From NCBI RefSeq assembly GCF_030013595.1, contig NZ_CP122768.1: a stretch of 64,000 nucleotides of DNA; one strand, written 5' to 3'. Below the pieces are notes generated by a model, which worked only from the letters and a program-made list of their open reading frames with translations, was not told the origin of the DNA and searched no databases. Shown here piece by piece: positions 34,055 through 53,333 of the stretch. Source of the stretch: Escherichia coli (lineage in GTDB: Bacteria; Pseudomonadota; Gammaproteobacteria; Enterobacterales; Enterobacteriaceae). How positions within the stretch are numbered: position 1 is the first letter of the stretch; every line of letters begins with the position of its first letter. The position numbers and the translations under genes are program-made.

Positions 34055-34060
34055 ATCCTT

Positions 34061-34540
34061 TTACTTCGTTTTCTCGCAATCCAGAACTGTATTTACAATC
34101 ATCTGATACCCCGTGCAGCGACAAAGATTTCCCGCCAGTCCGCGACGAATTTCCGTAATGGTTAATGGCTTCTCGCGTGGTTTCGCCAGCATTGCTGTGG
34201 TAGCCATAATCAGGCCAGGCGTACAAAACCCGCACTGCACCGCGCCGGATTTCGCATAAGCCTGCTGAATATGAGAAAGTTTTCCGCCTTTCGCTTCACC
34301 TTCCAGCGTGCGGATCTCTTTTCCTTCAGCCCAGGCGGCAAGGTATAAGCAACTGTCTATTGCTGTGCCGTCGACCAGCACCGTACAGGCACCACATTCA
34401 CCCACGCAGCACCCTTGTTTGACACTTAGCAGTCCTTGTTCGCGGAGTAATTCCGAGAGCGGCGTGCCTGGTGCGGCGTGAAGCTGAAAAGGGATCCCGT
34501 TAATGGCGCATTCGATGGTAATTGTTTCGCTGTGATTCAT
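34061..34540 (-). CDS. xdhC: Xanthine dehydrogenase 2Fe-2S subunit
   Basis: 159-aa ORF with 2Fe-2S Cys motifs ([17 protein letters not shown]). Confidence 0.92.
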
Positions 34541-35415: not shown

Positions 35416-35425
35416 GATGTTATCC

Positions 35426-37684: not shown

Positions 37685-38138
37685 GCATGATTCACCTGTA
37701 GCGGTTGCTTCCCGCGCTTCCATAGAAATCCCCTCGATTTGAACATTTGGTTCTTATGGCAAAGATTTAGTCTAAGCAGGCAAGATTTACGCCAGAAACG
37801 ACGATAAGCGTTAAGGGAGGAAGGAAGTGTGATGATGTTAAAAAAACACAGATATGATACGAAACAGGACCCTGAATAGGGGCAGTGATACGTATCAATA
37901 TGAGTGGCGATAAAATCAATGTGATAAATTGGGATTATTACGCATCAGGATGGGAAATAGGGTAAATGAGTCAGGAAATTCGATACATCTACAGTGAATA
38001 TTTTGCTGATGATACTTCCCTTTGCCAAATGAAATTAACCTCTTTCTCTATTACCGCGTTTTTCCAGAAGCAAGAGATTGGGTATCAAGAGGCTGGCTGC
38101 TATGATATGGCGTCTTGTTTTTTAAGCGAGGAAAGATT

Positions 38139-38891
38139 TTGAGTGCGGGACGCCTGAATAAAAAATCTCTGGGTATCGTGATGTTGTTATCGGTTGGACT
38201 GCTTTTGGCGGGCTGCTCGGGTAGCAAATCATCCGATACAGGAACGTATTCCGGCTCCGTTTACACCGTGAAACGGGGGGATACGCTATATCGTATTTCG
38301 CGCACCACGGGAACCAGCGTAAAAGAGCTGGCGCGACTGAACGGCATTTCCCCCCCTTACACCATTGAAGTTGGTCAGAAACTAAAACTGGGTGGGGCGA
38401 AAAGTAGCAGTACACGTAAATCAACCGCCAAATCAACGACCAAAACCGCATCGGTTACACCGTCATCAGCAGTACCGAAATCTTCCTGGCCGCCAGTAGG
38501 GCAACGTTGTTGGTTATGGCCAACGACAGGGAAAGTTATCATGCCGTATTCGACAGCTGATGGCGGCAATAAAGGGATTGATATCTCAGCTCCACGGGGG
38601 ACTCCTATTTACGCCGCGGGTGCAGGAAAGGTGGTGTATGTGGGCAACCAGCTGCGTGGCTACGGTAATCTCATCATGATTAAACACAGTGAAGATTACA
38701 TTACGGCTTACGCCCATAATGACACGATGCTGGTAAATAATGGGCAAAGCGTGAAGGTTGGGCAAAAAATCGCCACTATGGGGAGCACTGATGCGGCATC
38801 TGTTCGCCTGCATTTCCAGATTCGTTACCGTGCTACGGCAATTGATCCGCTGCGTTACTTGCCGCCTCAGGGCAGCAAGCCAAAATGCTGA
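38139..38891 (+). CDS. ygeR: LysM / M23-peptidase (LytM-domain) lipoprotein YgeR
   Basis: Signal peptide with lipobox LLAGC; LysM motif (YTVKRGDTLYRISRTTG); TTG start behind AGGAAA (alternative ATG at 38115). Confidence 0.85.
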   Translation: MSAGRLNKKSLGIVMLLSVGLLLAGCSGSKSSDTGTYSGSVYTVKRGDTLYRISRTTGTSVKELARLNGISPPYTIEVGQKLKLGGAKSSSTRKSTAKSTTKTASVTPSSAVPKSSWPPVGQRCWLWPTTGKVIMPYSTADGGNKGIDISAPRGTPIYAAGAGKVVYVGNQLRGYGNLIMIKHSEDYITAYAHNDTMLVNNGQSVKVGQKIATMGSTDAASVRLHFQIRYRATAIDPLRYLPPQGSKPKC

Positions 38892-38969
38892 TGGCGAATT
38901 AATCAGCAGTCAGCAGCGCGGCACTTGCTAAGGAGAGCGTAAGGTTTATAATGCCTTACGCATCTCGAA

Positions 38970-39043
38970 GCGGGCGTAGTTCAATGGTAGAACGAGAGCT
39001 TCCCAAGCTCTATACGAGGGTTCGATTCCCTTCGCCCGCTCCA
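38970..39043 (+). tRNA. glyU: tRNA-Gly, anticodon CCC
   Basis: 74 nt GCGGGCGTAGTTCAATGGTAGAACGAGAGCTTCCCAAGCTCTATACGAGGGTTCGATTCCCTTCGCCCGCTCCA; cloverleaf, T-loop GGTTCGATTCC, encoded CCA. Confidence 0.95.
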
Positions 39044-39044
39044 A
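39026..39044. repeat. attL: 19-bp direct repeat (tRNA-Gly 3' end) at the left island junction
   Basis: TTCCCTTCGCCCGCTCCAA is identical to 53083-53101. Confidence 0.85.
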
Positions 39045-39207
39045 ACAAACATTTCTCAACGTCTACTAAAGTCCATCAAACCCACGAATATCAAGCCTTC
39101 CAGCCATTTTCATAGTTTATTAACGTCTACTCACAACCACCAGAATCTACACACAGAAGTGTATAGTAATGCGTATAGGACAAAATTTATTTTTTGGAGC
39201 TATACAC

Positions 39208-40422
39208 ATGCTGCTTTCAGACCTTGCCATCAGGCGCGCGAAGCCGAAAGAAAAGGCTTATACACTCAATGACGGTAACGGGCTTTCGTTGCTCATTGAG
39301 CCGAACGGTTCGAAAGGGTGGCGACTGCGCTACAGGTTTGCAGGAAAGCCCAAAATGTTGTCGTTGGGTGTGTACCCTGATGTGTCTCTGTCTGATGCCA
39401 GGGCGGCAAGGGATGAGGCTAAAAGGCTTCTTGCTGGTGGTATAAATCCAAGTGAGGCCAGAAAAGCCCAAAAGCGAGAACAGGCGAGCAAATTTGGCAA
39501 TACTTTTGAGGGTATTGCTCGCGAATGGTACGAAAAGCGGATCGACAGGTGGTCATCGTCATACGCCGAGGAAATGATCGAGACGTTTGAAAAAGATGTT
39601 TTTCCGTACATTGGCGGTAGGCCGATCGCAGAAATTAAGCCGATGGAATTGCTGGCGGTTCTTTCCCGTCTTAATGACCGTGGTGCGACTGAAAAATTGC
39701 GTAAGGTTCGCCAGCGATGCGGCGAGGTGTTCCGGTACGCAATCATCACCGGACGCGCCGAATATAATCCAGCCCCTGACCTGGTGAGCGCATTTGCTCC
39801 ACATAAAAAAGAGCATTACGCCTATTTGAAGGCCGACGAACTGCCGGAATTTTTCCGCGTTTTTAATACGTACACCGGAAGCCAGATCGTCAAACTGGCA
39901 ATGCGGCTATTAATTCTGACAGGTGTCAGACCCGGGGAATTACGGCAGGCAGAATGGCAGGAGATCGATTTTGATAATCGTTTGTGGGAAGTGCCTAAAG
40001 AACGAATGAAGATGCGCCGTCCGCATTGTGTGCCATTACCAGAACAGGCGATAAAAATACTGGAGCAGTTAAAAAACATGACAGGCCAGTATCAGTTTAT
40101 TTTCCCCGGTCGTATTCACCACAGTAAGCCAATGAGTGAAATGGCGATGAATGTGCTCATTCGTCGTATCGGCTATGCCGGGCGCGTTACTGGTCATGGA
40201 TTCCGGCACACCATGAGCACCATTTTGCATGAGCAGGGCTATAACACCGCGTGGATAGAGACGCAGCTCGCACACGTCGATAAAAACTCAATTCGTGGCA
40301 CATACAACCATGCGCAATATCTGGATGGTCGCCGGGAGATGCTCCAGTGGTATGCCGACTATATGGATTCGCTCGAGCATGGCGGTAACGTGGTGCATGG
40401 CAAGTTCGGAAAATGTGGATGA
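39208..40422 (+). CDS. int: Tyrosine recombinase, P4-type integrase
   Basis: N-terminus MLLSDLAIRRAKPKEKAYTLNDGNGLSL...WRLRYRFAGKPK and catalytic-region residues (HGFRHT, LAH...RGTY); start after GGAGC. Confidence 0.9.
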   Translation: MLLSDLAIRRAKPKEKAYTLNDGNGLSLLIEPNGSKGWRLRYRFAGKPKMLSLGVYPDVSLSDARAARDEAKRLLAGGINPSEARKAQKREQASKFGNTFEGIAREWYEKRIDRWSSSYAEEMIETFEKDVFPYIGGRPIAEIKPMELLAVLSRLNDRGATEKLRKVRQRCGEVFRYAIITGRAEYNPAPDLVSAFAPHKKEHYAYLKADELPEFFRVFNTYTGSQIVKLAMRLLILTGVRPGELRQAEWQEIDFDNRLWEVPKERMKMRRPHCVPLPEQAIKILEQLKNMTGQYQFIFPGRIHHSKPMSEMAMNVLIRRIGYAGRVTGHGFRHTMSTILHEQGYNTAWIETQLAHVDKNSIRGTYNHAQYLDGRREMLQWYADYMDSLEHGGNVVHGKFGKCG

Positions 40423-40550
40423 CTGGTTGCGTATACAGTAGTAGACTTTGAGCGACGAAAGAAAAGGCTGTGTCTAGGGTCGCTCCCGAAAATCCGTACA
40501 CCTCGACGGACTGGTACAGCCACTACAGTAGAGGACGCTGAGGTGTGCGT

Positions 40551-41348
40551 ATGATTGATATTCATGCCGAATTAAACGAATACAAAAAAGATTTTATTTC
40601 TTTACGTGAATTTCTTGAGGTCGTGCTTAAGGTCGCTGGTGATGATTATGATGTTTCAGATGTCATAACTTGGATACTCAGGAGAATAAGCGGAGAACAT
40701 ATCCGCCTGTACACAGTAAATGAATTTAAGCTGTTGGAATCTTTTTGTAACCCGTATCGGGATGAATTTGATTATGATGTTCTTTATAGAAATCTGAATG
40801 CGGTTCGGAAACGTGGTTGTTTACCTGGTGAGAGGGATGAAAATGGTTTTCTGGTGTCCGGTTATTGGGAAGATCCCGAATTTGAGAACATTGGATTTAT
40901 AAGGGGTGAAATTTTCGCAATTTTTCCCGATGTCCTTGACGCGTTAACGAAGCTGGAAGGCGCTAACTCTTCTGAAAATGACGAGGCACAAGGACGCGAT
41001 ATTGAAAAGAAAGAGTTGCGTACAGAGGATGATTTATTATCCCAAATCGCAATGCTGGAAAAAGAAAACGCAGAGTTAAGGGCAAGGATAGAGCAGTTAG
41101 AGCAAGAGCGCCCGATACACTTATATAAATACTGGGATAAAGACCCATTAGCTAAGGCTATTGAGATTAGAAACAGAGAGTGGGCCAATTACGATCCAGA
41201 AAATGATTTTGCCACCAGGGGAAATCAAGAAGCGATAACCAGGGAGCTTAAGCAGTGGGGGGCAAGTAATGCACTTGCAACGCTCATAGAGAGGACTGCC
41301 TGCCCTATTAACCGAGACAACAGCCAAAAGAACGCAAAGCCGGATTAA
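40551..41348 (+). CDS. Hypothetical protein, AT-rich orphan cargo gene next to the integrase
   Basis: 265-aa ORF behind a GAGG Shine-Dalgarno; central coiled-coil stretch (LSQIAMLEKENAELRARIEQLEQER); visibly lower GC than int; no motif I recognise. Confidence 0.6.
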   Translation: MIDIHAELNEYKKDFISLREFLEVVLKVAGDDYDVSDVITWILRRISGEHIRLYTVNEFKLLESFCNPYRDEFDYDVLYRNLNAVRKRGCLPGERDENGFLVSGYWEDPEFENIGFIRGEIFAIFPDVLDALTKLEGANSSENDEAQGRDIEKKELRTEDDLLSQIAMLEKENAELRARIEQLEQERPIHLYKYWDKDPLAKAIEIRNREWANYDPENDFATRGNQEAITRELKQWGASNALATLIERTACPINRDNSQKNAKPD

Positions 41349-41363
41349 CGCACCATACCGCAT

Positions 41364-41507
41364 ACCCTGAGGGTGATTTACTGTTACCCTGAGGGTATTT
41401 TTTTATCTTCCCCGTCAATTTTACCATCACCCTTAGGGTAGATTTCCTCCCGATTACCATCACCCTTAGGGTTAATTTCCTTCCGGTAACCATTAGGCCT
41501 GAGGGTA
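41364..41507. repeat. Five copies of the palindromic motif CCCT(G/T)AGGGT, including a ~33-bp tandem direct repeat; putative operator upstream of alpA
   Basis: Copies at about 41364, 41386, 41428, 41461 and 41494; unit TTACCATCACCCTTAGGGT(A/T)(G/A)ATTTCCT occurs twice. Confidence 0.6.
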
Positions 41508-41575
41508 TGAAAATATTCGTTATTTCTGTGCCAGGATTACCTCGTCAAATTGAGTAGACGTTATGAGGTAAATAT

Positions 41576-41773
41576 ATGTCAAATACGCTTATTCGTTTAA
41601 CAGAAGTTCAGCGTAGAACTGGATATAGCAAGGCATGGATTTATCGCCTTATGGGGCAAGGTAAATTTCCTGCATCAGTTAAAATTGGCTCGCGAGCTAT
41701 TGCTTTCGTTGAGAGTGAAATTGACGAGTGGATTAATCAGCGTATTGCGGAATCACGCGGAACAGCTACCTGA
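41576..41773 (+). CDS. alpA: AlpA-family phage transcriptional regulator / excisionase-like
   Basis: 65 aa, MSNTLIRLTEVQRRTGYSKAWIYRLMGQGKFPASVKIGSRAIAFVESEIDEWI, the canonical AlpA HTH. Confidence 0.8.
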   Translation: MSNTLIRLTEVQRRTGYSKAWIYRLMGQGKFPASVKIGSRAIAFVESEIDEWINQRIAESRGTAT

Positions 41774-41850
41774 TTAAATGGCTACGGGGCTATTGCCCCC
41801 AGCTATCCACCAGCAAATAAAAGTAACTTAATTCGATAGCAGGAGTTTTT

Positions 41851-42651
41851 ATGAAATTTCCAAAAACGCCCGTACAGGGGCGGGGCTTCGTTCGGCCTGA
41901 AAACCAGAATCTGCAAAATTTCGGCGAAATTATCCCGGTTATTTCCGGCGTTATTGGCGGGAGTGAAACCACTATTGTTAGCGCCAGAGCGTTACATAAG
42001 GCGTTAGGTGTAGGGCGCGTTTTCCGTTCGTGGATCAAGGGGCGCATTGAAGAATACGGGTTCACGGAAGGCGTGGATTATGAGGTTGTTGAATATTTGA
42101 GCCGACCCGATCCGGTGAGCGCAAAATCTCGCCAGCAAACCGCTCTTGAGTACATCATCACAGTGAACATGGCGAAAGAACTGGCGATGGTCGAGCGCAC
42201 CGAACAGGGCCGCGCCGTTCGTCAGTACTTCATCAAATGCGAGGAGGAGCTACACAAGGTTGCGCCTGTTCGTTCCGCAGCGTTACGCCGGGAACTGAAA
42301 GCCCGTATCACCGTTGCCAGTTACTTTAAGCCGATGTGCGCCGCGCTGGAGGCGTACCGGGCTGAACTGGGTAAAAACACGTTCCAGCACCACTACACCA
42401 CGGAAGCCAATATGCTGGCGCGTATCGTGCTGGGTGGCATGACTGCAAAACAGTGGGCGCAGGCGAACGGCATCACAGGCGAACCACGCGACCACATGAG
42501 CACGTTGCAGCTTGAGCACCTTTCTTACCTTGAGCAGAGCAATATCACGCTGATTGAGTTAGGCCAGGACTACCACCAGCGGAAAGCTGAATTAATTCGT
42601 CTTTCGCAGCGTTGGTTAGCCCGTCGCATGGAGGAAAACAGCCATGTGTAA
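41851..42651 (+). CDS. Phage antirepressor-like protein (AntA N-terminal / KilAC-like C-terminal)
   Basis: ARALHKALGVGRVFRSWIKGRIEEYGFTEGVDY and MAKELAMVERTEQGRAVRQYFIKCEE resemble Ant-type antirepressor domains; AGGAG Shine-Dalgarno. Confidence 0.65.
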   Translation: MKFPKTPVQGRGFVRPENQNLQNFGEIIPVISGVIGGSETTIVSARALHKALGVGRVFRSWIKGRIEEYGFTEGVDYEVVEYLSRPDPVSAKSRQQTALEYIITVNMAKELAMVERTEQGRAVRQYFIKCEEELHKVAPVRSAALRRELKARITVASYFKPMCAALEAYRAELGKNTFQHHYTTEANMLARIVLGGMTAKQWAQANGITGEPRDHMSTLQLEHLSYLEQSNITLIELGQDYHQRKAELIRLSQRWLARRMEENSHV

Positions 42652-43278
42652 CGCTCTGACCGTTACAAAAAGAGAAAGCGCCCCGTTGCCGGAGCGCCTT
42701 TGTGAACGAATAGCCTACTGCGCCATATTGCTTACTGTCTACGAGGCAGATTATAGCGTTGTGGTCGCACAGAGTGAAGGCGCTGATCACCGTTACTACA
42801 GCACGCCAGAAATGCAGAATATTTTGCTGCAAAATGCCGTTGGTCACGCCGTCCGGAAAGCAAAAAATTTTGCTGGTGGCGCGACTGATGCGATTTTGTC
42901 AGGTCGCCAGGTGCTGATCAATCTGATGTCTGATTTCGTTCTGGATAAAACAAAGGCGACCGCAGAGAGCCGCCAGTGGAAAAGCTACATACTTGAACGC
43001 ATCACCAACAATGCCACATTTGCGGCTGGTGGGCAATGTGATCAGTCAGATTTGGTTCGTTCCAAGGTTTGCAACGAGAGCTTTTTCCTGTGCTCTTTAA
43101 GGAATTTCTCAAGAGCAAACGAACAAGGTGCGAATCTTTCTGATTCATGTTCATGCGCTATATTTTTGCGTCGTTTCTTACGAGTTGGTGATGGTGTTTT
43201 GGTTGATTCTGTGTCGCTCATGGTGCTGTCCTGTAAAGCAATGCGCCTGCGTTCCTCAAACTATGGCGCTGATAGTGG

Positions 43279-43584
43279 CTATTCCTGCTCTTTGACCTTG
43301 CGTCGCTGGAGTTCTTCACGCGCGACGGTGACGAGTTGCCCGATCTCCTCGGCTGCTTTGACTCCGATTTTTTCCACCTGCGCCAGTGCATCGAGCGAAG
43401 AAACCAGGGGATTTTCTCCTCTTCCTTCTGCCTGGCGCCGGGCGATCTCCCCGCGCATGGCGGTTACTATGAATCCGGCGTTGCTTTCGCCGTCCAGTTT
43501 TACGGATTCCATGCCTTCAATAACATCATGCGGGATCCGAGCTGTCAGTGATTGTGATTTTGCGTTTTTTGAACCTGTAGCCAT
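43279..43584 (-). CDS. Putative small DNA-binding repressor (ribbon-helix-helix-like), divergent from the replication operon
   Basis: 101 aa from the ATG at 43584 behind GAGAGGA (track ORF extends to a TTG at 43599); faces a palindrome-containing intergenic region. Confidence 0.5.
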   Translation of the reverse strand: MATGSKNAKSQSLTARIPHDVIEGMESVKLDGESNAGFIVTAMRGEIARRQAEGRGENPLVSSLDALAQVEKIGVKAAEEIGQLVTVAREELQRRKVKEQE

Positions 43585-43780
43585 CTGTAATCCTCTCAAT
43601 GAAAGTGTAAGACAATATACACATAAAAAGTCTTACATAAAAGCATTGACATGTAAGCCACCCACAAATAAAGTTACTTACACCTTGTTAATGCAAGGTG
43701 CAGAAACGACGAAACCCGGCAGTGCGCGAACACTAACCGGGCTTCTAACCACCAACGATAGAGAGCTTATCGAGGTAGCT

Positions 43781-43984
43781 ATGTTAAATCATACCACACA
43801 CCCGCAAGGGCGGGACTCGCACAACCTGAATAAATACATCTGGCGTTTTATCGCCCTGAGTACGGCACAACCGCGCGTAATTCACATCGAGGCCACCAGC
43901 GAACAGGAAGCGCGTCAGCAATCTCCTGATGGCTGCGTGATGGTATTCGCTGCCCGTATTCGCCAGGAGGTGCACCATGCATAA
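43781..43984 (+). CDS. Hypothetical small protein (67 aa), first gene of the rightward operon
   Basis: ATG behind GAGGTAG; stop overlaps the start of the next gene; it is the C-terminal segment of track ORF 42644..43984. Confidence 0.4.
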   Translation: MLNHTTHPQGRDSHNLNKYIWRFIALSTAQPRVIHIEATSEQEARQQSPDGCVMVFAARIRQEVHHA

Positions 43985-44342
43985 CCTGTCAATTTCTGAC
44001 CTTAACAGCATTCAGTTTGACGAGAAATTTACCGGGCAGCTACTGGTCCATGTGGAGAACGGGCGCATAGTGCGTAATTACAACCTGCCGGATGGTGCAA
44101 TTGCCGGAAGCGTTGAAGCATTGCTGGAACTGGCAGAACGTGCGCGACTGATTAAGCCGTTAACGAGCCATCACGATGATGATCTGCATTTTACCGGACG
44201 CATGGTGAGTCACTACGAAAACGGTGTCGAGGTATCCCGCGAACGTCTGCGTGATGATTGCTGTTTCGGCACACTGCCGGAATTTATCGAATTGCTGACC
44301 GATTGCGGTTATCAGGTAATTCAGAGCAAGACGCAGGAGTAA
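43977..44342 (+). CDS. Hypothetical protein (121 aa)
   Basis: ORF coupled to the upstream and downstream genes; no recognisable motif. Confidence 0.5.
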   Translation: MHNLSISDLNSIQFDEKFTGQLLVHVENGRIVRNYNLPDGAIAGSVEALLELAERARLIKPLTSHHDDDLHFTGRMVSHYENGVEVSRERLRDDCCFGTLPEFIELLTDCGYQVIQSKTQE

Positions 44343-44348
44343 AAAACC

Positions 44349-44639
44349 ATGAAAAAGAAAAATTCTGGCTTTACTGCCAGCGGCCCCGCTCGGCCTGAAA
44401 TCAGACACGGCGATATTTACCGCGACACCAGACGCGGGGGACGAGTGGTTATTCGTCACGTTACGCCAGGCAATATCACCTACCGCCGCGAGGCTTACGA
44501 ATATGACTGCGTAATGCCGCGCCGTCAGTTTGAGCGTGATTTTATTCTGGTGGAAAACAAACAACAGGCGGTGGCGAGACGTGCAGCCACGAATATTAAA
44601 AAAATCCGGGCAATGTTGGTTGCGGGAGGTAAGAAGTGA
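44349..44639 (+). CDS. Hypothetical protein (96 aa)
   Basis: AGGAG Shine-Dalgarno; stop overlaps the GTG start of the primase gene. Confidence 0.5.
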   Translation: MKKKNSGFTASGPARPEIRHGDIYRDTRRGGRVVIRHVTPGNITYRREAYEYDCVMPRRQFERDFILVENKQQAVARRAATNIKKIRAMLVAGGKK

Positions 44640-46384
44640 AAAACGCACCGAATTTGAAATATCAGCCGAAGGATAAATTCACTGAGGTTATCATTTTTGC
44701 CGGGACGGATGCTTACGCCCATGCCCAACACTGGATTGAAAGCGAAGGACGAAAACATGGCGATAACGTGCCACCCGTTTATCTGGGGCCAAAGCAACTG
44801 GCAGACCTGGCGAATATCCGCATTGTCGACGATGAACGCCGCTTTGCGCGTGTTTATATCGCGGGGGAGATAGAGCCAATCCAGATCAACGCTATCGCTG
44901 AAAAACTGGCGCTGGCTGGCGTACAGGAGGCGAAATTATACAAAGGCATCACCGACCGGGAGCCGGAGAACTGGCGCGATTACCTGCAACGGTTACGCGA
45001 ACAGGCTGAGCGCGGAGAAATTCTGTCAGGAAGGACCGAGAAAAAACACAAAATATCTCTTTCCAGAATGGCGGACAGCCAAAGGGCAAAACTTTTAGCT
45101 GAACGATTTCAGGATGTAGCAATGAATCAGGAGAGTGAGGTTGTCCACGTCTGGCGCGATGATTTTTGGGTTCCGGTAAGCACACTGGATCTTAGTCGTG
45201 AAATGGTGGCTATTTACGAAGAAAACGGAACAGCGTTTAGCCGGAGAGCAATAAGCAATGCAGTGGATGCTTTAAAAGTTATGGCCAGGCCAATGGGGGA
45301 GCCGTCAGGTGATTTATTGCCGTTCGCTAATGGCGTGTTTGACCTGAAAACTGGCGAATTTTCCCCGCACTCGCTGGATAACTGGATCACCACGCATAAC
45401 GGCATTGAGTACACGCCACCAGCACCAGGGGAGAACATCCGCGACAACGCGCCAAACTTTCATAAATGGCTTGATCACGCTGCAGGAAAAGACCCGCGAA
45501 AGATGATGCGTATATGCGCTGCGCTGTACATGATTATGGCTAACCGGTACGACTGGCAAATGTTTATTGAGGCCACAGGAGACGGCGGGAGCGGCAAGAG
45601 CACATTTACGCACATAGCCACCCTTCTGGCAGGGAAACAGAACACGGTAAGCGCCGAAATGACATCGCTTGATGATGCTGGCGGGCGTGCACAGGTTGTC
45701 GGAAGTCGTCTTATTGTCCTGACAGACCAGCCGAAATATACAGGCGAAGGATCGGGAATCAAGAAAATAACTGGCGGCGACCCCGTGGAAATTAACCCGA
45801 AATATGAGAAGCGTTTCACAGCAATTATCAGGGCTGTCGTGCTGGCAACAAACAACGTGCCGATGATATTCACCGAACGGGCCGGAGGCGTTGCACGTCG
45901 ACGTGTAATTTTTCAGTTCGATAATATTGTAAGGGAGGCCGAAAAGGATAAAGAATTACCGCAAAAGATAGCGGCAGAAATACCTGTCATTATTCGTCGA
46001 CTGCTTACTAACTTTTCAGATCCAGAAAAAGCACGAGAATTATTGCTTGATCAGCGTGACGGTGCCGAAGCTCTGAAAATAAAACAGGAAACTGATCCTG
46101 TCATTGGGTTATGTGCGGCGCTTGCATTTCTTGACGAACCGCATGGAATGATGATGGGAGGCGGTAAGAGAACAGTTGACCTTAACCCACGTACAAGTCT
46201 GTACAGGCTTTATCTTGCCTTTATGGAGTACATAGGCAAAGAAGAAAAATTAAGTGTTAATGATTTTGGTAAGGCCATGAAGGCGGCTGCAAGAGAATAT
46301 GGAGCTGAATATCTGACCAGAGGTTTTAAAGGACGAACACAAACTAACGTTATAAGAACGGAGAGAACCGAGGAATTTTTATAA
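44636..46384 (+). CDS. Phage/plasmid primase-helicase (P4-alpha / PICI Pri-Rep type, SF3 P-loop)
   Basis: Walker A GDGGSGKST and Walker B-like LIVLTDQP; GTG start behind GGAGG; iterons immediately downstream. Confidence 0.85.
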   Translation: MKNAPNLKYQPKDKFTEVIIFAGTDAYAHAQHWIESEGRKHGDNVPPVYLGPKQLADLANIRIVDDERRFARVYIAGEIEPIQINAIAEKLALAGVQEAKLYKGITDREPENWRDYLQRLREQAERGEILSGRTEKKHKISLSRMADSQRAKLLAERFQDVAMNQESEVVHVWRDDFWVPVSTLDLSREMVAIYEENGTAFSRRAISNAVDALKVMARPMGEPSGDLLPFANGVFDLKTGEFSPHSLDNWITTHNGIEYTPPAPGENIRDNAPNFHKWLDHAAGKDPRKMMRICAALYMIMANRYDWQMFIEATGDGGSGKSTFTHIATLLAGKQNTVSAEMTSLDDAGGRAQVVGSRLIVLTDQPKYTGEGSGIKKITGGDPVEINPKYEKRFTAIIRAVVLATNNVPMIFTERAGGVARRRVIFQFDNIVREAEKDKELPQKIAAEIPVIIRRLLTNFSDPEKARELLLDQRDGAEALKIKQETDPVIGLCAALAFLDEPHGMMMGGGKRTVDLNPRTSLYRLYLAFMEYIGKEEKLSVNDFGKAMKAAAREYGAEYLTRGFKGRTQTNVIRTERTEEFL

Positions 46385-46401
46385 GAGTAATGCCTGCAAC
46401 A

Positions 46402-46691
46402 GGTAGACGGGTAGATATTGGGTAGATGCTAGTTTTATGGATGCCTACCCGCTGAATCCCTTGCGCCACAAGGGATTCAGCGAAATAGGTAGATAGGGTA
46501 GACAATATCTCGCTTAAAAACTTTTTTACGCAGCGAAAGGAAAATACAGGTTAGAGAATGGAGAGTTAAAAGAAAGTCACTTTTACTATCTACCCTATCT
46601 ACCTAATAGATAAAAGTTGTTTTTTATCATTGTGTTAAGTGGGTAGATAACCGTTTCTTTGTTGTCTACCTGTTATCTACCTTGTCTACCC
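46402..46691. repeat. Putative replication origin: at least 11 copies of the iteron GGGTAGA(T/C) in both orientations, an 11-bp-arm hairpin and an AT-rich stretch
   Basis: Iterons at 46402, 46409, 46420, 46488, 46496, 46588, 46597, 46641, 46664, 46675 and 46684; inverted repeat CTGAATCCCTT/AAGGGATTCAG at 46452-46480. Confidence 0.7.
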
Positions 46692-46760
46692 ATAAGATGA
46701 AAGTACCGGATACGCCGTGAAGGTGCAGGCAGTGAAGCCCTGGTTATCGCATGTACCAAG

Positions 46761-47108
46761 ATGAAGGATGCGGAGGAACTGAAAGAAATGGCTTGCGATT
46801 TGCGCGAGGTTGAGCTTTTCAAGGATGAAGGCGGGGAGTTAATCACGTCGTTGGTGCTGGAGGATAAGCCCCGCCCACCCGTTGAACTGGAGCGCATCGA
46901 GTACGCTGCTAACAAGACAGAGAATCACGACGCGCTATGGGGCTGTATCCGTTCACGCACACAGCGCGGCGATAAATGCACTATCCCGTTGTTGCGCGAT
47001 GACATGAAAAAGCTGGGGTATGAGATGAAACACTTCCGGCGCTGGCTGTACAAGCTGGAAAGCGACGGCGTAATCGCTATTGACGGTGATTATGTGCGCC
47101 CACTGTAA
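46761..47108 (+). CDS. Hypothetical protein (115 aa)
   Basis: ORF only; sits between the origin and the GTGAGGA array. Confidence 0.4.
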   Translation: MKDAEELKEMACDLREVELFKDEGGELITSLVLEDKPRPPVELERIEYAANKTENHDALWGCIRSRTQRGDKCTIPLLRDDMKKLGYEMKHFRRWLYKLESDGVIAIDGDYVRPL

Positions 47109-47495
47109 AAAGTGAGGAGCAAAAGTGAGGATGGCGGGTAATTTAACAAAAAATCAACGCCACTCCTCACTTTCTCACCTGTATATAGGTCAAAAAGTGA
47201 GGAGTTAAAAACACATTGCAAAACAACAGATTACAACAATAAAGAAAACGACTGAGGAGCAGAACAAGAATAATAAAAAGTGAGGAACAAAAGTGAGGAA
47301 TGGTGAGTTAATAGAAATGAGGTAATAAAAATAACAGGTAGGTTAAAAAACACACCATGCAAGATATTAACTAAAACTTAACTATTTACCTCACTTTTGC
47401 GTATATATAAGGATTAAAAAGTGAGTACTTAAAAATACATTTAAAATCATATTGTTATTAACTTCATAAATTTTCACTGTGCAGCAGGTGAGGAA
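47107..47495. repeat. AT-rich non-coding array of at least 8 copies of AAAGTGAGGA (both orientations)
   Basis: Copies at about 47107, 47121, 47161 (inverted), 47193, 47276, 47289, 47388 (inverted), 47417 and 47487; no ORF of 60 aa or more. Confidence 0.6.
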
Positions 47496-47574
47496 TTAAA
47501 AAATCAGGAATGTTAAAAATGAAAACAGAATGTTGTGTCAGTGCCGTTGGGCAACGTAGCAACCAGTAAAAACG

Positions 47575-48117
47575 ATGGGGCAAAGCATGACTAAGCTGAC
47601 CATTAACAGAAAACCGAAAGGCATTTACGGCACGCCGCAGAAAACGACGCAGGCGGCGCAGGAGCAGGATAAAACCACATCGGCGCATAAAGTGATGCCC
47701 GGTAACCAGAAAGCGCAGCAGAAGCCCACAGGGGCGACACCGTGGCGGCATATGACCAAACGCCAGCGCAAAAACCGCAGGCGCGTTAACCGCCTCACTG
47801 AGTTGTGGCCTGAATTATTCAGCCGGGAAGCACCGAAGCCGCTTAAGGTGGGGATATTCGACGACCTGATGCAGGATCTCGCCGTCAGGGGGCTGGCATT
47901 CGGTCCAGGGGCATTGCGTGCGACGCTGGCATCTTATGCGCAGTGTCCGCGCTATTACCGCGCCTTAATGGCTGGTGGGGTACGCTACGACCTGAAAGGC
48001 CAGCCGTGCGGCGAGGTGACACCACAGGAACAACAGGACGCCGAAACGCGGCTGGTGGCGCTGAATGAGAAGCGCAAACGTCAGCGCCGGGCAGCAAAGG
48101 AGAAAACAGGCGCATGA
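47575..48117 (+). CDS. ProQ/FinO-domain RNA-binding protein
   Basis: LTELWPELFSREAPKPLKVGIFDDLMQDL...RATLASYAQCPRYYRALMAGGVRYDLKGQPCGEV parallels the recalled ProQ N-terminal domain (RFPHCF...RPLKIGIFQDL...RVDLDGNPCGE). Confidence 0.7.
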   Translation: MGQSMTKLTINRKPKGIYGTPQKTTQAAQEQDKTTSAHKVMPGNQKAQQKPTGATPWRHMTKRQRKNRRRVNRLTELWPELFSREAPKPLKVGIFDDLMQDLAVRGLAFGPGALRATLASYAQCPRYYRALMAGGVRYDLKGQPCGEVTPQEQQDAETRLVALNEKRKRQRRAAKEKTGA

Positions 48118-48401
48118 TTCACGACAGCAAAGCGGAAGCACTGGAAGCGCGTGGTCTGTACCGGAGAGCGGCGGCGCGGTGGGCTGAGGTCATCATGCTG
48201 GCGAATGATGACAAGGCACGGGAACAGGCGGCAAAACGTCGCGCGGAATGTATCCGCAAGGCAGCACGCCCACCAGCAAGGCAGGATAATTTCGGGGAAA
48301 TGCGCGAAACCATCAGCCGGGCACATGCCGGGATGGGATTACATCAGCCCAATGGTAAGGCATTCAGGAAATACCCTGGATCGAAAAATTGCAGTCAGTG
48401 A
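48114..48401 (+). CDS. PerC-family transcriptional regulator (copy 1)
   Basis: MIHDSKAEALEARGLYRRAAARWAEVIM...RRAECIRKA matches the PerC/Pch family signature as I recall it; ATGA overlap with the ProQ/FinO gene. Confidence 0.7.
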   Translation: MIHDSKAEALEARGLYRRAAARWAEVIMLANDDKAREQAAKRRAECIRKAARPPARQDNFGEMRETISRAHAGMGLHQPNGKAFRKYPGSKNCSQ

Positions 48402-48405
48402 CAGA

Positions 48406-48430
48406 AGCCGGGATTTTTCCCGGCTTTTTT
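48406..48430 (+). terminator. Rho-independent terminator after the PerC-like gene
   Basis: AGCCGGG-attttt-CCCGGCT followed by a T6 run. Confidence 0.75.
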
Positions 48431-48442
48431 GTGCCAGTAAAA

Positions 48443-48477
48443 AGCCCGCAGCCAGAAGTGTTGCGGGCTTTGTTTTT
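48443..48477 (+). terminator. Second tandem rho-independent terminator
   Basis: AGCCCGCA...TGCGGGCT followed by TTGTTTTT. Confidence 0.65.
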
Positions 48478-48596
48478 CAGGTGATTGAAGTCAATGGGAA
48501 GAACGCGATCATCATGCGTTATCGCTTCATAAATTGCAACGATGTAGATCGTTATTTCAGTTTGTGCAATCATAATCATTGTTTTGTTCAGGAGAT

Positions 48597-48776
48597 ATGA
48601 CTATGAGAAAAGCCAGCGTGAAACCCGTTTTACTCGCTCGTGATCAGATTGAAGCATTACAGCGCATCCAGGACGAGGAACGCCGCAATTCTCCGCTGGG
48701 GATTGCTCCGAGCATTCATGAGGTCGCCCGGCGTTTAATGCAGCGGGCGCTTTATCCCGTAGAACGTCCGGCCTGA
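48597..48776 (+). CDS. Hypothetical small protein (59 aa)
   Basis: ATG behind CAGGAG; MTMRKASVKPVLLARDQIEALQRIQDEE... Confidence 0.4.
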   Translation: MTMRKASVKPVLLARDQIEALQRIQDEERRNSPLGIAPSIHEVARRLMQRALYPVERPA

Positions 48777-48815
48777 TGGTCGTGATTTTTTGGTGAAAAA
48801 AGAGAGGTGGTAAAA

Positions 48816-49400
48816 ATGCCAGCAAGCAAAGAAGATTTGCGATTAAAACTGATGGAGGTGGTTAACGCTCTGTCAGAGTCGCAGGGCAGCACTCCGCAGG
48901 AGATTATCGAAATTCTGAATGCGATCCCCGCACAGGATTTCACAAAAGCGGACGAGGATGACGCGAATAAAAACATCGTCGCGTCAGTCGAAGATGAATC
49001 CTCACTGGCAGAAGCCCAGGCTAAAGCGGATTCCGCATACAGCAATATGGGCCGTCGCGCTCCAGCCCCGTTTGCTGGTGAAAAGTCGATGGATTACCGC
49101 AAGCGTGCATTAATTGGTGCACAGAAGCTGGCTAAAAAATTCAGTGATGTGGATATTCGTTCCGTTTCAGATTCTGCAACGCTGGCGGTGCTGGAAGATC
49201 AGATTTACCAGGCTGCAAAAGACAGTGTTCAGTGGGCTGTGGAAAATACGCCGGGCTATTTGCGTAAAACCGTAAGAATGGATGAAGCCGGACGGCGGAT
49301 TACTGAATATCAGGGGGATCCGAATAACTGGCTTAGTGCTTTCAAAATCCCTCCCCGTCGCCTGGTTAAAATTAACGTTGCAAGCCTCGCGGGGGCATGA
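48816..49400 (+). CDS. Hypothetical protein (194 aa)
   Basis: ATG behind GAGGTGG; acidic, with predicted helical regions; no recognisable motif. Confidence 0.5.
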   Translation: MPASKEDLRLKLMEVVNALSESQGSTPQEIIEILNAIPAQDFTKADEDDANKNIVASVEDESSLAEAQAKADSAYSNMGRRAPAPFAGEKSMDYRKRALIGAQKLAKKFSDVDIRSVSDSATLAVLEDQIYQAAKDSVQWAVENTPGYLRKTVRMDEAGRRITEYQGDPNNWLSAFKIPPRRLVKINVASLAGA

Positions 49401-49464
49401 AAAACGTGCTGATTTCAGCCCTGCCGGATTTGGTGGGGCTTATTGCTTATAACCGGGGGACATT

Positions 49465-50118
49465 ATGCTTTTAACAGAAATTGAGGCGGCAAAGCAGATT
49501 CGGGACGGTCAGCTACCGTCGCCTTATCAGTTTTCCAACATGTGGCTGATTAACCTGCGTATCACAGGAACCGGAATGGCCTATCGCGCCGAAGAAAAAG
49601 AATTTGTCTGGCGTTCACCGCAAACTTATCTCAATCCGCAGTTCCTGGAACGTTGCGCCGGAGTACCCGTCATTATCGACCATCCCGAAAGCAAAACCCT
49701 TGAAGACGTGGGCGAACGGTCGCGCATTATTGGCACCGTTATGTTGCCGTATATTCGCGGTGACGAGGTGTGGGGCGTATGCCGGATTTACGGGCAGGAA
49801 ATCATCGATTACATCCAGAAAGCACGGGGGGAGGTATCCACCAGCCCGTCGGTTGTGTTTTGTGGTGCGTCCGGTGGGGCAGAAGTTCCTGATGTAATGG
49901 GCGAGGACAATTTTTTCATTGAGGGTACGCCATTTCTTATCGATCACGTTGCGCTCGTACCGTTGGGCGTATGGGATAAGGGCGGGAAACCATCAGGTGT
50001 GGAAGTAACAACGCCGACAGAAGAAGAACAGCTCGCCGGAATGGTCCGTGAAGTTATTGATGCGGCCTGCAAGCCAGCCCTGGAAAAACTGGAAGAAATA
50101 TCCGGGCGCTGGCTATGA
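49465..50118 (+). CDS. Hypothetical protein (217 aa)
   Basis: ORF behind a GGGGGA Shine-Dalgarno; no recognisable motif. Confidence 0.5.
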   Translation: MLLTEIEAAKQIRDGQLPSPYQFSNMWLINLRITGTGMAYRAEEKEFVWRSPQTYLNPQFLERCAGVPVIIDHPESKTLEDVGERSRIIGTVMLPYIRGDEVWGVCRIYGQEIIDYIQKARGEVSTSPSVVFCGASGGAEVPDVMGEDNFFIEGTPFLIDHVALVPLGVWDKGGKPSGVEVTTPTEEEQLAGMVREVIDAACKPALEKLEEISGRWL

Positions 50119-50288
50119 ATCGTGGGATTGTCCCTGCAGCAGGAAACAATGATCAGAACGTTAAGTTGGAAATTGTTCGGAACGCTGGTGCCGATTACTT
50201 CGCGCAACTAATTGGTGCTCAACGGTTCCTGGGATGATTTAAATACACGCGCTTTCCGGCGCATTAATACAGTCTGAGGGGAAGTGTC

Positions 50289-50813
50289 ATGTTTATGAGC
50301 AAGGCAGAATATGCCAAACACAAAGGCGTAAGCCGCCAGACAGTTTACGACTGGATCGAGAAAGGCGAAGTGGTCATGTCCGGTAAAAAAATCGATGTGG
50401 AAGCGACAGAGCAGCGGAACAGCCCACCAGCACAGGGAAAAGATACCGTTTCTGAAATGTGGCCAGAGAGAACGCTGGAAATGACGTGGGGCGAGTTCTG
50501 GAAAGCAGTTAAGGCCAGAGACGGTAAAATCCCTGCACCAGTAACGGACGATGACATACAGCAGCGTGTGCAGGATGCAGCCGGGGAACTATGCTGTGAA
50601 GTGCAATTTCTTGATGATGGTGCTATCTGCCTTGAGGATTATGCTGGGCAATATTACTTTGAGCAGTATGATTTTCGGGAAAATGCCAGGCTGGCAATTC
50701 GTATGCTGCGTTGTGAGCTCTGCTATGTTGCAGGTGATTGTCCCGATGAGCTGGATAACTGGAGTGAAGCCGGACTAAACGCCCTGGCTGAGTGGGAAAA
50801 ATCATCCCATTAA
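50289..50813 (+). CDS. HTH-domain protein (small-terminase / Rpp-like N-terminus)
   Basis: N-terminus SKAEYAKHKGVSRQTVYDWIEKGEV is a typical HTH as seen in phage small terminase subunits; followed by a repeat array. Confidence 0.5.
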   Translation: MFMSKAEYAKHKGVSRQTVYDWIEKGEVVMSGKKIDVEATEQRNSPPAQGKDTVSEMWPERTLEMTWGEFWKAVKARDGKIPAPVTDDDIQQRVQDAAGELCCEVQFLDDGAICLEDYAGQYYFEQYDFRENARLAIRMLRCELCYVAGDCPDELDNWSEAGLNALAEWEKSSH

Positions 50814-50826
50814 TGACCGTAAAATT

Positions 50827-51110
50827 CGCGAAAAGTGTCAAGTCAGGCCGTCTGCCGGGTTGACACTTTACACTCTGAACGCGAAAAAGTGTCAACCTCG
50901 CTGTAAGCCCCGCCATTACTGGCCTTTCGCCAGATTTACCACGTCAAAAAGCCGAAAAAATCGCGAAAAGTGTCAAGTTGCCATGCTTAGAAATGCTAAG
51001 GTTTGATAAGGTTTTTCGCGAAAAAGTGTCAAGTGTGTCAACCTGCGATGTTAAGATTTGTTAAGGTCTTAAGCCGGAAAGTGTCAACCAGCCCCTAAGA
51101 TTTCCTAAGG
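50827..51110. repeat. Array of at least 6 copies of CGCGAAAAGTGTCAA plus three TAAG(A/G)TTT doublets
   Basis: Copies at about 50827, 50861 (inverted), 50880, 50960, 51016 and 51078; non-coding. Confidence 0.6.
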
Positions 51111-51118
51111 TGTAAATC

Positions 51119-51409
51119 ATGACCATCACCGAAGCCGATATGCTGGAGATGATCCGCAGCATTGCCGGAATCAGACCACCAGCAGGCAAACAGGAGGCCA
51201 CGCAGCCGGACAGCGTTATCGCTGAGAACTATGCGCGTGTGGTGGCTGAGGTGATGCGCCGTGACGGTATTGAGCTTAACGGAGTGGATATGCGCGACAT
51301 ACGCACCAGGGTACTCGAGTTATTGGCCTACCGTCGCCGCGTGCAGATGTACCGGGAGAGCGAGAAAAAGACTTACCAGTGGAAGAAGCCGGAGCGGTTA
51401 CGGCGGTAA
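51119..51409 (+). CDS. Hypothetical protein (96 aa)
   Basis: ORF behind an AAGGTG Shine-Dalgarno. Confidence 0.45.
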   Translation: MTITEADMLEMIRSIAGIRPPAGKQEATQPDSVIAENYARVVAEVMRRDGIELNGVDMRDIRTRVLELLAYRRRVQMYRESEKKTYQWKKPERLRR

Positions 51410-51459
51410 CCAGTTGATAAAAAGGCTCCTCAATTTTGAGGAGGGTAGCTGGTGGCTGG

Positions 51460-51481
51460 CAGAATGTAAATTTACATTCTG
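51460..51481. terminator. Perfect 22-bp palindrome between convergent genes (bidirectional terminator or protein site)
   Basis: CAGAATGTAAATTTACATTCTG, preceded by a second hairpin CTCCTCA-attt-TGAGGAG at 51426-51443. Confidence 0.5.
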
Positions 51482-51511
51482 GTGATTTAATCATCTGATT
51501 TACCCGATGGC

Positions 51512-51802
51512 TTACCTTACCAGGCCATAGCGGATTACCGTGCAATGCGCACCATCGCCACCAATACGCACATCAAAACGTGGCTCACGGACTTTCACAC
51601 GCTCCAGCAACTTATCACGAACCATAGCGTTTAGCGTCCTTCGTGTTGCCTCTATGTGATATCGCTGATATTCGGAACCATAGAGCAGCACTGTAACACC
51701 ACGAACATCAAAAGGTGGATCTCCAGCCTCCACCCGCACCCAATCGCGATACTCAGGTTTGTAGAGTTCAAGGATCTGTTTTTTGTGCCTGGTCATTCTC
51801 AT
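51512..51802 (-). CDS. Hypothetical protein (96 aa)
   Basis: Minus-strand ORF with a protein-like composition; palindromic operator upstream. Confidence 0.45.
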   Translation of the reverse strand: MRMTRHKKQILELYKPEYRDWVRVEAGDPPFDVRGVTVLLYGSEYQRYHIEATRRTLNAMVRDKLLERVKVREPRFDVRIGGDGAHCTVIRYGLVR

Positions 51803-51916
51803 GCGTGCAACTCCTTATTGTGGGACAGTACTGTCATACAATAAGCTATACGGAAAATTATCAAAAGAACAGAAACCAACCATTCAGATTTAACAGGTAT
51901 CAATGGGATTATGCTT

Positions 51917-52219
51917 ATGGTGCATGATGACAAAGCGGAAGAACTGGAAGCGAAAGGCTTATGGCGACGGGCGGCTAATCGCTGGGGTGAGTTACTGAAA
52001 CAGGCGGCAAGTGATGAAGCGCGTCAGTATGTAACGGAACGACGAACGGCATGCATCCGGAAGGCAACCATAACCCGGGAACCGGAAAGAGACCTGATTT
52101 GTGCCATAAGAACCGCCGCCACAAAAACACTAACGGATATGGGGATCGACCTGAAAAAAGAAGATCCACTGCGGGGCATTCAGCACGGACATACAAAGCA
52201 GGATAAACGCAGGAAGTAA
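51917..52219 (+). CDS. PerC-family transcriptional regulator (copy 2)
   Basis: MVHDDKAEELEAKGLWRRAANRWGELL...RRTACIRKA parallels copy 1 at 48114 (clear paralogue); alternative ATG at 51911. Confidence 0.7.
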   Translation: MVHDDKAEELEAKGLWRRAANRWGELLKQAASDEARQYVTERRTACIRKATITREPERDLICAIRTAATKTLTDMGIDLKKEDPLRGIQHGHTKQDKRRK

Positions 52220-53082
52220 ATTTTTTCGTGTAACCAGGCAACCGACTATCTGAAAGATAGTCACACCCTACCGGGATCACGCTAGTAACGCACAACAGAG
52301 TGACCCATAGCCACCCTGTTTAACCGTTCCGGCTGGCTGGGCAGATTTTGCGCGGGTCTTATAGTCCCTCACAACAGAGTAAATAAAATTGACTTGGTTA
52401 CAGAGTAACCAAACCGGAGATTCCCGGTTTGCTCAAAAAATGACAATGAGTTACGCCCCTAACCTAAGTAATCCTTACATTCACTGCATCATCACCATGA
52501 TGGTGACGCAGCCCACCAGCAACCATAACGATTTCCGTTACAGTTGATGTGCTTTTTTGCTGGTAAGGCGTAACCCGTTGATTGTTCCAGAATCCACCAT
52601 CGGTGGAAGTTGAAAAACTCACCCGCCAGATTCTGAATGGTGAAAATCACCGGGGATCTGAATAGGCATTTCCTCTATGGAGGTCGCACCGTTTTCGGGA
52701 GAAGGTGCGATCATGTTCGTCATACCTGTTCCGTTGAAACGGAATACCCCATTCCGGCGTAGCTGGTGGACGCACAGCCACATACGAAAAATTGCATTCA
52801 GGAGGGGGGATCGAAATCCCTACCCCCCATTGCTTATGGGACCGCCCGCCCCGTCAAATTTTTACACCCGCGAAATTAAAAAAATGCGTCGCGCTGGTGG
52901 GCCTGATGCCGATATGGGGATTCCCATAACGGGTTATCCATGATCATCCACCAGCTTGATAACGGATAACAGGGGATGCGAAATCCTCAAGCGAGTGATA
53001 AACGTGTATAGAAATGTGTATAGAATCTATTTTAGAACTCGAGAATGTGCCTTTATTACTGGTCTTGTTGCTTGTTGTATTG

Positions 53083-53101
53083 TTCCCTTCGCCCGCTCCA
53101 A
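53083..53101. repeat. attR: 19-bp direct repeat of the tRNA-Gly 3' end at the right island junction
   Basis: TTCCCTTCGCCCGCTCCAA is identical to 39026-39044. Confidence 0.85.
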
Positions 53102-53333
53102 TTTATCTTCACCTCATCAACCTGTCATTTTTGTTGTATCTGATTTTCTATATTATCTTAATTCAATCGCTTCAGACTTTTCGCAATCGCCGAAATACTT
53201 CCCCATTTTGTTGTAAATAAAAAGCGTTTACGCAATGCAATCCTTTTGTAACAACCCAGGTAAAATACCTTATTTTCAAGTTGTTAAATAAGTGGTTATC
53301 TACGCTTTTAACAAACGATTGATGGAATATTTT

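Follow-up and report, generated by a model that had tools for sequence, protein, structure and literature searches.

What is the ~14 kb insertion that lies between the tRNA-Gly gene glyU and the ETT2 locus of an Escherichia coli chromosome (NCBI RefSeq assembly GCF_030013595.1, contig NZ_CP122768.1), and by what means might it move? A first-pass annotation of a 64,000-nucleotide stretch of this contig, hereafter the window, had described the insertion as a strain-specific island with the layout shared by P4-like satellites and Gram-negative phage-inducible chromosomal islands (PICIs). It did not mention the phiP27-type cos site, the split protease/scaffold homologues, the winged-helix gene and its box array, the relic second origin or the int-alpA RNA motif, all described below. 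Our analysis indicates that the 14,057-bp unit is probably a PICI-type satellite of the EcCICFT073 lineage that has acquired a P4-family integrase targeting the 3' end of glyU. Below we set out the comparison that carries this assignment, describe the boundaries and modules of the island, and weigh the life cycle that they suggest against other explanations of the same genes.

Family assignment

On gene content the element belongs with the Gram-negative PICIs, in the EcCICFT073 lineage, and not with the P4-like satellites. Of the features of Gram-negative PICIs that can be looked for in sequence (Fillol-Salom 2018; SatelliteFinder PICI model), it has an att-flanked integrase at one end, alpA 3' of int, a Pri-Rep gene with the origin ori1, and mostly rightward transcription, all assigned genes lying on the + strand save three small ones (coordinates are those of the window, and features are on the + strand unless marked otherwise). 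EcCICFT073, the prototype Gram-negative PICI (Fillol-Salom 2018, 2019), has the same core gene order as the island, namely int, alpA, a leftward YlcI gene, an Icd-like gene, small open reading frames (ORFs), DUF4222 and Pri-Rep, followed by an iteron origin, PerC, a hijack module and a small last gene. In tblastn comparisons, identity to the EcCICFT073 proteins is 95% for the Icd-like protein, 71% over the full length of Pri-Rep, 69% for the product of the last gene, 60% for YlcI, 53% and 49% for PerC, 52% for DUF4222, 37% for AlpA and 26% for Int. The two elements are also alike in size (11–14 kb) and in having no tail or lysis genes.

The differences lie in the target and in the hijack module. 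The island is integrated at the tRNA gene glyU, whereas EcCICFT073 is integrated at ycfD-phoQ. EcCICFT073 carries capsid-like, decoration-like and RppA genes between two exact lambda cosN sites; the island has none of these and holds instead a phiP27-type cos, another winged-helix gene with a box array, and split homologues of a head protease/scaffold protein. It also has an intact antirepressor gene (Ant), a ProQ/FinO protein and a second PerC. Lambda-type packaging, as in EcCICFT073, was considered for the island and rejected, since neither a lambda cosN nor an Rpp homologue was found in it.

Two other kinds of PICI bear comparison. EcCIMP1 (Pick et al. 2025), which we liken to the island by description, is likewise integrated in a tRNA gene and likewise encodes AlpA, an antirepressor, PerC and a DNA primase. 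It differs in being 20 kb long, in using tRNA-Thr and in having a P22-like helper, Kapi1; its PerC-type cargo acts on expression of the locus of enterocyte effacement, and it has been described as phylogenetically distant from the EcCICFT073 group. Of the set that defines capsid-forming PICIs (major capsid, portal, protease, connectors, HNH, terS and terL), PHROG scans found nothing in the island, whose sole trait of that kind is a cos resembling that of an HNH-type phage.

What is new in the island is the joining of an EcCICFT073 backbone to another integrase and target (glyU, beside ETT2) and to another hijack module; in other respects the island is unexceptional within a family that has many members. 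None of the eight E. coli PICI attachment sites in the 2018 catalogue is described as a tRNA gene, glyU is absent from those eight, and glyU was not found as a PICI site in the E. coli defence-island paper either.

Boundaries at glyU and distribution among E. coli genomes

The limits of the island are set by a repeat of the end of the tRNA gene. The only tRNA that ARAGORN predicts in the window is tRNA-Gly(CCC), encoded by glyU (38970–39043; Rfam tRNA, 71.6 bits), whose 3' end is the integration target. The 19-bp repeat reported in the first-pass annotation proved to be exact and to form a unique pair: TTCCCTTCGCCCGCTCCAA occurs twice in the window, as the attL core (39026–39044) and the attR core (53083–53101), with no further copy even at two mismatches, and none of 100 shuffled windows gave two matches. 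The distance between the repeats is 14,057 bp. Adjoining attL and attR, respectively, are tandem GTGTATAG half-sites at 39159–39178 and 53004–53023, and GTGTATAGNAATGYGTATAG is found in the window solely at these two places (chance expectation 0). These half-sites, present at both ends, are candidate arm-type sites for the integrase.

The left flank reads xdhA-actS-glyU, and the right flank begins with an intact glycoside hydrolase family 15 gene and continues into ETT2; the same arrangement is found in a 99.8%-identical genome in which the glyU site is empty. Of 5426 complete E. coli genomes, 3379 contain without interruption a synthetic empty junction composed of the 600 bp ending at attL and the 600 bp from just past attR, and many more span the junction but without the DNA downstream. 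The integrase allele of the island, at a coverage of at least 80%, is present in 78 of these genomes, and the proposed strain specificity is borne out by both counts.

In none of the 5426 genomes does a single location hold as much as 80% of the island, and the island is therefore a mosaic. Positions 41866–51190 are 99.2% identical to the island of the pig strain cq9, which is located at abgR-smrA with a different integrase; the segment from int to the adjacent orphan gene is 96% identical to the glyU island of strain U90; and the segment at 51190–52570 is present in RM9088 and 25 other genomes. At the occupied glyU sites of the few genomes inspected, solely islands of PICI type were seen. Beyond attR, the glycoside hydrolase family 15 gene (53292–54944) encodes 550 aa, and in some genomes only a ygeQ remnant is annotated at its position. 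The G+C content to the right of the island, on the ETT2 side, is 40.4%, against 50.9% to the left, a difference that would fit an earlier insertion of ETT2 at this tRNA.

Integrase, int-alpA slot and regulatory region

The gene nearest attL encodes a P4/CP4-family tyrosine integrase (39208–40422; PRK09692, 1.3e-96). Its ORF is open from 39169, and homologues begin at 39208. The Pfam domains Arm-DNA-bind_3, Phage_int_M and Phage_integrase are each full length, the catalytic R...K...HxxR...H...Y can be read from the sequence (TGVRPGEL, KMRRPH, HGFRHT, LAHVD, GTYNH), and the protein matches CP4-like integrase domains in the PDB. The P4-type integrase called at first pass is thus a full-length tyrosine recombinase with its catalytic residues in place.

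Between int and alpA lies an accessory slot holding a 265-aa orphan (40551–41348) with a variable N-terminal domain, a coiled coil and a conserved C-terminal domain. Within E. coli, identity among members of this family ranges from 100% down to 34%; the N-terminal ~130 residues are hypervariable and the C-terminal ~70 nearly invariant (ERPILL...ACPIKR). Such a pattern is what one would expect of a protein whose recognition domain can be swapped; a fold search gave no informative match. The slot also contains the Rfam int-alpA RNA motif RF02996, a motif of unknown function (40467–40534; 45.5 bits against a gathering threshold of 35.8; E 1e-6; full model length). The motif begins 45 nt past the int stop codon, and its 3' tail (AGAGG) lies just 5' of the start of the orphan gene. 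The RNA may be a 5' leader of the orphan gene rather than of alpA.

The genes first noticed as alpA, an Ant-like gene and a leftward repressor-like gene all have family matches. The first encodes an AlpA-family regulator/excisionase (41576–41773; phrog_2790 and phrog_66, 1.5e-11), and the second an AntA/AntB-type antirepressor (41851–42651; phrog_5817, 8.7e-42) that carries the same name in relatives annotated by the Prokaryotic Genome Annotation Pipeline (PGAP). The third encodes a YlcI/YnfO family protein (43279–43599, − strand; NF041551, 6.8e-20), a candidate leftward repressor, and is preceded in the window by a small hypothetical gene (43042–43221, − strand) that is 72% identical to its EcCICFT073 counterpart and is annotated in cq9. 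A sigma-70-like promoter sequence, TTGACA-17-TAAAGT, recognized by its match to the consensus only (10 of 12 positions), faces the Icd-to-primase operon at 43646–43674. A search for a C4/CI-type antisense RNA 5' of the Icd-like gene, as in P1/P4 immunity, returned from Rfam only a sub-threshold SymR match at 43708–43780. The regulatory region is also spanned by a 446-aa ORF (42644–43984), which PGAP annotates in part, in some relatives, as a long 'Icd-like' protein. Because it runs across the leftward genes and shares no more than its final 67 codons with the true Icd-like gene, this ORF is in all likelihood a spurious extension.

Replication module

The rightward operon begins with the Icd-like gene (43781–43984) and continues with a gene for a 121-aa hypothetical protein (43977–44342; phrog_340, 8.5e-30), the DUF4222 gene (44349–44639; phrog_285) and the gene for Pri-Rep, a replication initiator/SF3 helicase (44636–46384; TIGR01613, 7.3e-32; Pfam D5_N, DUF5906 and Pox_D5). 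The rightward operon of the first-pass annotation, with iterons immediately 3' of its last gene, was recovered as described; the designation of that last gene as a primase-helicase stands for the helicase part, Pfam finding no recognizable primase catalytic domain in Pri-Rep.

The iterons make up ori1 (46398–46692, no strand assigned), in which two opposed GGTAGA(C/T) sets surround a spacer (46508–46586) of 66% A+T. Eleven of the 17 GGTAGAY heptamers in the window fall within 46402–46690, directly 3' of the Pri-Rep gene. This is the layout described for PICI origins, in which two iteron sets flank an AT-rich region after pri-rep (PMC6092414).

A second, relic replication module stands directly 3' of the active-looking Pri-Rep and ori1. 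It comprises the C-terminal fragment of a RepA-helicase-type replication gene (46761–47108), which matches positions 347–465 only of phrog_2850, and a second iteron set of AAGTGAGGA repeats, ori2 (47105–47502, no strand assigned); six of the eight copies of AGTGAGGA in the window lie within it. The fragment represents the last 115 codons of the gene, is annotated as a pseudogene in cq9, and has a full-length allele in L7_E1373. Over its first ~140 residues Pri-Rep itself resembles the N-terminus of this RepA-type family (phrog_2850). The shared N-terminus suggests that one allele may have replaced the other by recombination inside the common N-terminal domain.

Candidate packaging site and hijack module

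Near its right end the island carries a phiP27-type cos site (52838–52882), a 45-nt block identical to the cos region of phiP27 that includes the annotated 10-nt phiP27 cos, CGCCCGCCCC, at 52843–52852. When the whole island was compared by megablast with 50,697 phage records, the single match was an 82-bp one to this annotated region, which in phiP27, a Stx2e phage, stands between the HNH endonuclease and terS genes. Linear genomes of Burkholderia cos phages have the same core at their extreme left ends, and one of these records begins at the base equivalent to 52841, which places a physical DNA end of these phages at the motif. The block occurs in 74 E. coli genomes, nearly always in unannotated DNA, and two more islands that share the module, that of cq9 and the ETEC4077 island at yejM/tRNA-Pro, carry it at their 3' ends. 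The core is 89% identical across the E. coli Stx2e phage, E. coli satellites and Burkholderia siphovirus genome ends, a nucleotide conservation unusually deep for a packaging site.

HNH-type cos packaging is the class exploited by SaPIbov5 (bioRxiv 10.1101/2022.09.08.507074), and the phiP27 cos is of the same class. Like SaPIbov5, with its HNH-type cos, and P4, with the P2 cos, both of which borrow the terminase of a helper, the island has a copy of a cos and no terminase. It differs from both in that they belong to other bacteria or have other gene sets, in that only the island has the winged-helix gene and array, and in that the use of its cos is a prediction.

The positional slot that Rpp holds in EcCICFT073 is taken by a satellite-specific winged-helix protein of 174 aa (50289–50813; AlphaFold2 model with a mean predicted local distance difference test score, pLDDT, of 88.8), for which tblastn found no phage homologue. 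Its fold resembles the DNA-binding domains of TerS, RppC and Xis, and its C-terminal domain gave no convincing fold match. Satellites of Pantoea and Enterobacter retain the gene as the last of their core genes, and several further genera of Enterobacterales have homologues of it. Directly 3' of it, at 50826–51118 (no strand assigned), six AAGTGTCAA boxes are interleaved with TAAG-N-TAAGG boxes. The array holds six of the seven AAGTGTCAA copies in the window, and none of 100 shuffles reached seven. A composite array of this kind also follows a 35%-identical Enterobacter homologue, with a weaker version in Pantoea, and gene and array move as a unit in 166 E. coli genomes. The array is a candidate binding array for the winged-helix protein, and the two may form a device that confers specificity on packaging or on late-gene expression.

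Two further genes of the module are related to the two ends of one 430-aa protein of the phage Rac-SA53. The first encodes a 197-aa protein (48807–49400; phrog_6216 positions 405–544) that aligns, over its residues 63–191, with the C-terminal domain of the Rac-SA53 protein at 64% identity (E 2.5e-53). The second encodes a DUF2213 protein (49465–50118; Pfam DUF2213, 4e-6, with a weak head-maturation-protease match to phrog_530) that aligns with the N-terminal half at 54.5% identity. The Rac-SA53 protein has a weak protease match of its own, and its gene is flanked by portal and MuF-like genes on one side and by the major head gene on the other, the position of a head protease/scaffold. In the island the halves are separate genes, their order is swapped and the coiled-coil linker is gone. 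This arrangement is also kept in the islands of TUM9812 and ETEC4077, the latter having homologues of two more Rac-SA53 genes (82% and 51% identity).

In the kinship of a satellite protein with an internal head-assembly protein of a phage, the 197-aa protein recalls SaPI (Staphylococcus aureus pathogenicity island) CpmB, P4 Sid and other satellite proteins that redirect capsids; the island proteins have no sequence relation to CpmB or Sid. The earlier remark that the island has no capsid or tail genes stands in so far as no PHROG family for major capsid, portal, terminase, tail, lysis, holin or head-tail connector was found among the ORFs scanned, and needs amending for these two homologues of a protein in head protease/scaffold position.

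The module is also scarred. At 50100–50234 remain the last 45 codons of a lytic-transglycosylase-domain gene, 100% identical to the C-terminus of a 679-aa protein of the ETEC4077 island (L015, 10395–12434), whose gene is one of the two further Rac-SA53 homologues of that island. Since only these codons are kept, the island is a deletion derivative; the remnant marks a deletion of ~2.6 kb in which a homologue of the Rac-SA53 gene rac52 was lost as well.

Cargo

The accessory load of the island is regulatory (two PerC proteins, a ProQ/FinO protein and Ant), without a recognizable defence system. The ProQ/FinO-domain protein (47575–48117) matches NF010317 (9.6e-18) and NF003434 (1.4e-15), both under their curated cut-offs, and is followed by the first PerC-family regulator (48114–48401; phrog_994, 8.2e-36). 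A 96-aa protein (51119–51409; phrog_1561, 3e-47) is the counterpart of the last gene of EcCICFT073. Beyond it, the 3' slot of the island consists of a PerC-type module and the cos site; the module comprises a 96-aa orphan (51512–51802, − strand) with no match in any library, annotated as 'hypothetical' in the 26 genomes that have the module, and the second PerC-family regulator (51911–52219; phrog_994, 1.6e-25), annotated as PerC in relatives.

The expectation of anti-phage cargo fails for the copy in the window and holds for its relatives. PADLOC, applied to 20 ORFs, found no known defence system in the island; nothing rose above noise, the matches being a partial PDC-S22 match on the C-terminus of Ant and weak helix-turn-helix matches to mad1. 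In the 3' cargo slot the TUM9812 island has Abi and SieB, and that of L7_E1373 has DUF4747 with a partner; the latter island also encodes an SDH Clp-fold protease 3' of its origin. The O104:H4 strain C227-11 of the 2011 outbreak (NZ_CP011331, 3425506–3452308) has a close relative of the island at a different site. It has the 265-aa orphan allele of U90, the same unit of winged-helix gene and array, and in its 3' slot an AAA ATPase with DUF4435, PARIS-like by annotation.

Proposed life cycle and alternative explanations

If the island behaves as its backbone suggests, a helper phage entering lytic growth would switch on alpA, by analogy with EcCICFT073 and EcCIMP1. AlpA would then activate the rightward operon, Int would excise the element via the 19-bp core, and Pri-Rep would fire ori1 to produce concatemers. 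The HNH/TerS/TerL machinery of the helper would cut and package these at the phiP27-type cos, much as P4 and SaPIbov5 exploit a cos of the kind their helper has. More speculatively, the 174-aa protein might bind the adjacent AAGTGTCAA array and so bias packaging or regulate the late region, and the two protease/scaffold-half proteins might be decoys that perturb capsid assembly of the helper or of a competitor, as SaPI CpmB does.

Several observations weigh against this account. First, the induction, excision, replication and packaging of the island are predicted by analogy, as are the identity of its helper and its mobility. Second, the two clues to the helper disagree, the cos pointing to phiP27-type phages and the capsid-related genes to Rac-SA53-type phages. 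The island proteins have no homologue in the packaging/head region of phiP27; conversely, the box motif is absent from the Rac-SA53 region sampled (20279–38932), and neither megablast nor blastn matched the cos block to the Rac-SA53 genome, so that Rac-SA53 was rejected as a source of the cos or the array. Rac-SA53 cannot settle the cos question, however, because its terS is a deletion fusion. The size of the island offers a further clue, three times 14,057 bp being 99% of the phiP27 genome size, a 1:3 ratio that is weak because relatives span 12.6 to 17.5 kb. Third, the fold match of the 174-aa protein does not tell Xis, TerS and Rpp apart, and no relation to Rpp extends beyond 25 helix-turn-helix residues (BLASTP against RppA; a phmmer search of the PDB misses RppC). 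Finally, the scars of the island, namely the RepA fragment with its second iteron set and the transglycosylase remnant left by the ~2.6-kb deletion, show a mosaic history, and its particular mosaic recurs in no complete genome, so that the copy in the window could be inactive.

A more ambitious interpretation would see a single undescribed hijacking strategy in three parts of the island: the winged-helix gene with the AAGTGTCAA array beside it, the free-standing cos of phiP27 type, and the head protease/scaffold genes, split and reversed in order. By such a strategy a capsid-less PICI would parasitize HNH-cos phages such as the Stx2e phage phiP27 while its decoy halves of the phage's assembly protein sabotaged head assembly. 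We regard this as possible and, on present evidence, rather doubtful.

It is unlikely, and somewhat more so than the preceding interpretation, that the island is a decayed, immobile satellite remnant, retained for its regulators (PerC, ProQ/FinO) or by drift. The RepA gene fragment with its orphan iteron set, the 45-codon transglycosylase piece within a hijack module that has lost ~2.6 kb, and the lack of the same mosaic in any complete genome all speak for decay, and host virulence genes are known targets of the PerC regulators that PICIs encode (PMC6092414, PMC11773190). Yet everything that the cycle requires looks intact, namely the integrase with its catalytic residues, the perfect att cores, alpA, pri-rep, ori1 and cos. 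In addition, cq9 and U90 share this deletion form at 99% conservation, and because it stands there at two different att sites, it appears to have spread after the deletion.

We consider it very improbable that the island serves mainly in anti-phage defence, with the protease/scaffold halves and the orphans acting against Rac-SA53-like or other phages, by abortive defence or by blocking assembly, and mobility being secondary. Such a role would suit the presence of head protease/scaffold homologues without any capsid shell gene, the fast divergence and variable N-terminus of the 265-aa orphan in the int-alpA slot, and the Abi/SieB, DUF4747 and PARIS-like pairs that relatives hold in the 3' slot, accessory slots of PICIs being known defence hotspots (PMC11364771). 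PADLOC, however, finds no system in the island, and interference with a helper is normal in satellites, so that this explanation overlaps with the assignment to an EcCICFT073-lineage PICI and does not exclude it.

The P4 half of the first-pass placement is scarcely credible: a P4-like satellite dependent on a P2-like helper would account for a P4/CP4-family integrase targeting a tRNA 3' end, an AlpA gene and a P4-family primase C-terminal domain, but integrase, AlpA and primase are common to P4-like elements and PICIs (SatelliteFinder; PMC10085698), PHROG and NCBIfam scans found none of the psu, delta, sid and epsilon families, the island has no match to the P2/P4 cos at up to three mismatches, and its backbone genes are those of EcCICFT073, with only the integrase of P4 type. 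The PICI half of that placement stands on the same backbone.

Implications for PICI biology in E. coli

Through PICIs, enterobacteria exchange genes for defence and regulators of virulence at high frequency, and few mechanisms linking an E. coli PICI to its helper have been worked out, namely Rpp with lambda-type cos, the capsid-forming PICIs, and EcCIMP1 with Kapi1. As a probable EcCICFT073-lineage PICI, the glyU island is distinguished by a cos that it shares with a Shiga-toxin-converting phage found in pig strains. If this cos is functional, we hypothesize that the split protease/scaffold genes would represent a testable new form of capsid interference, and that phiP27-like Stx phages could mobilize PerC-carrying islands among livestock E. 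coli.

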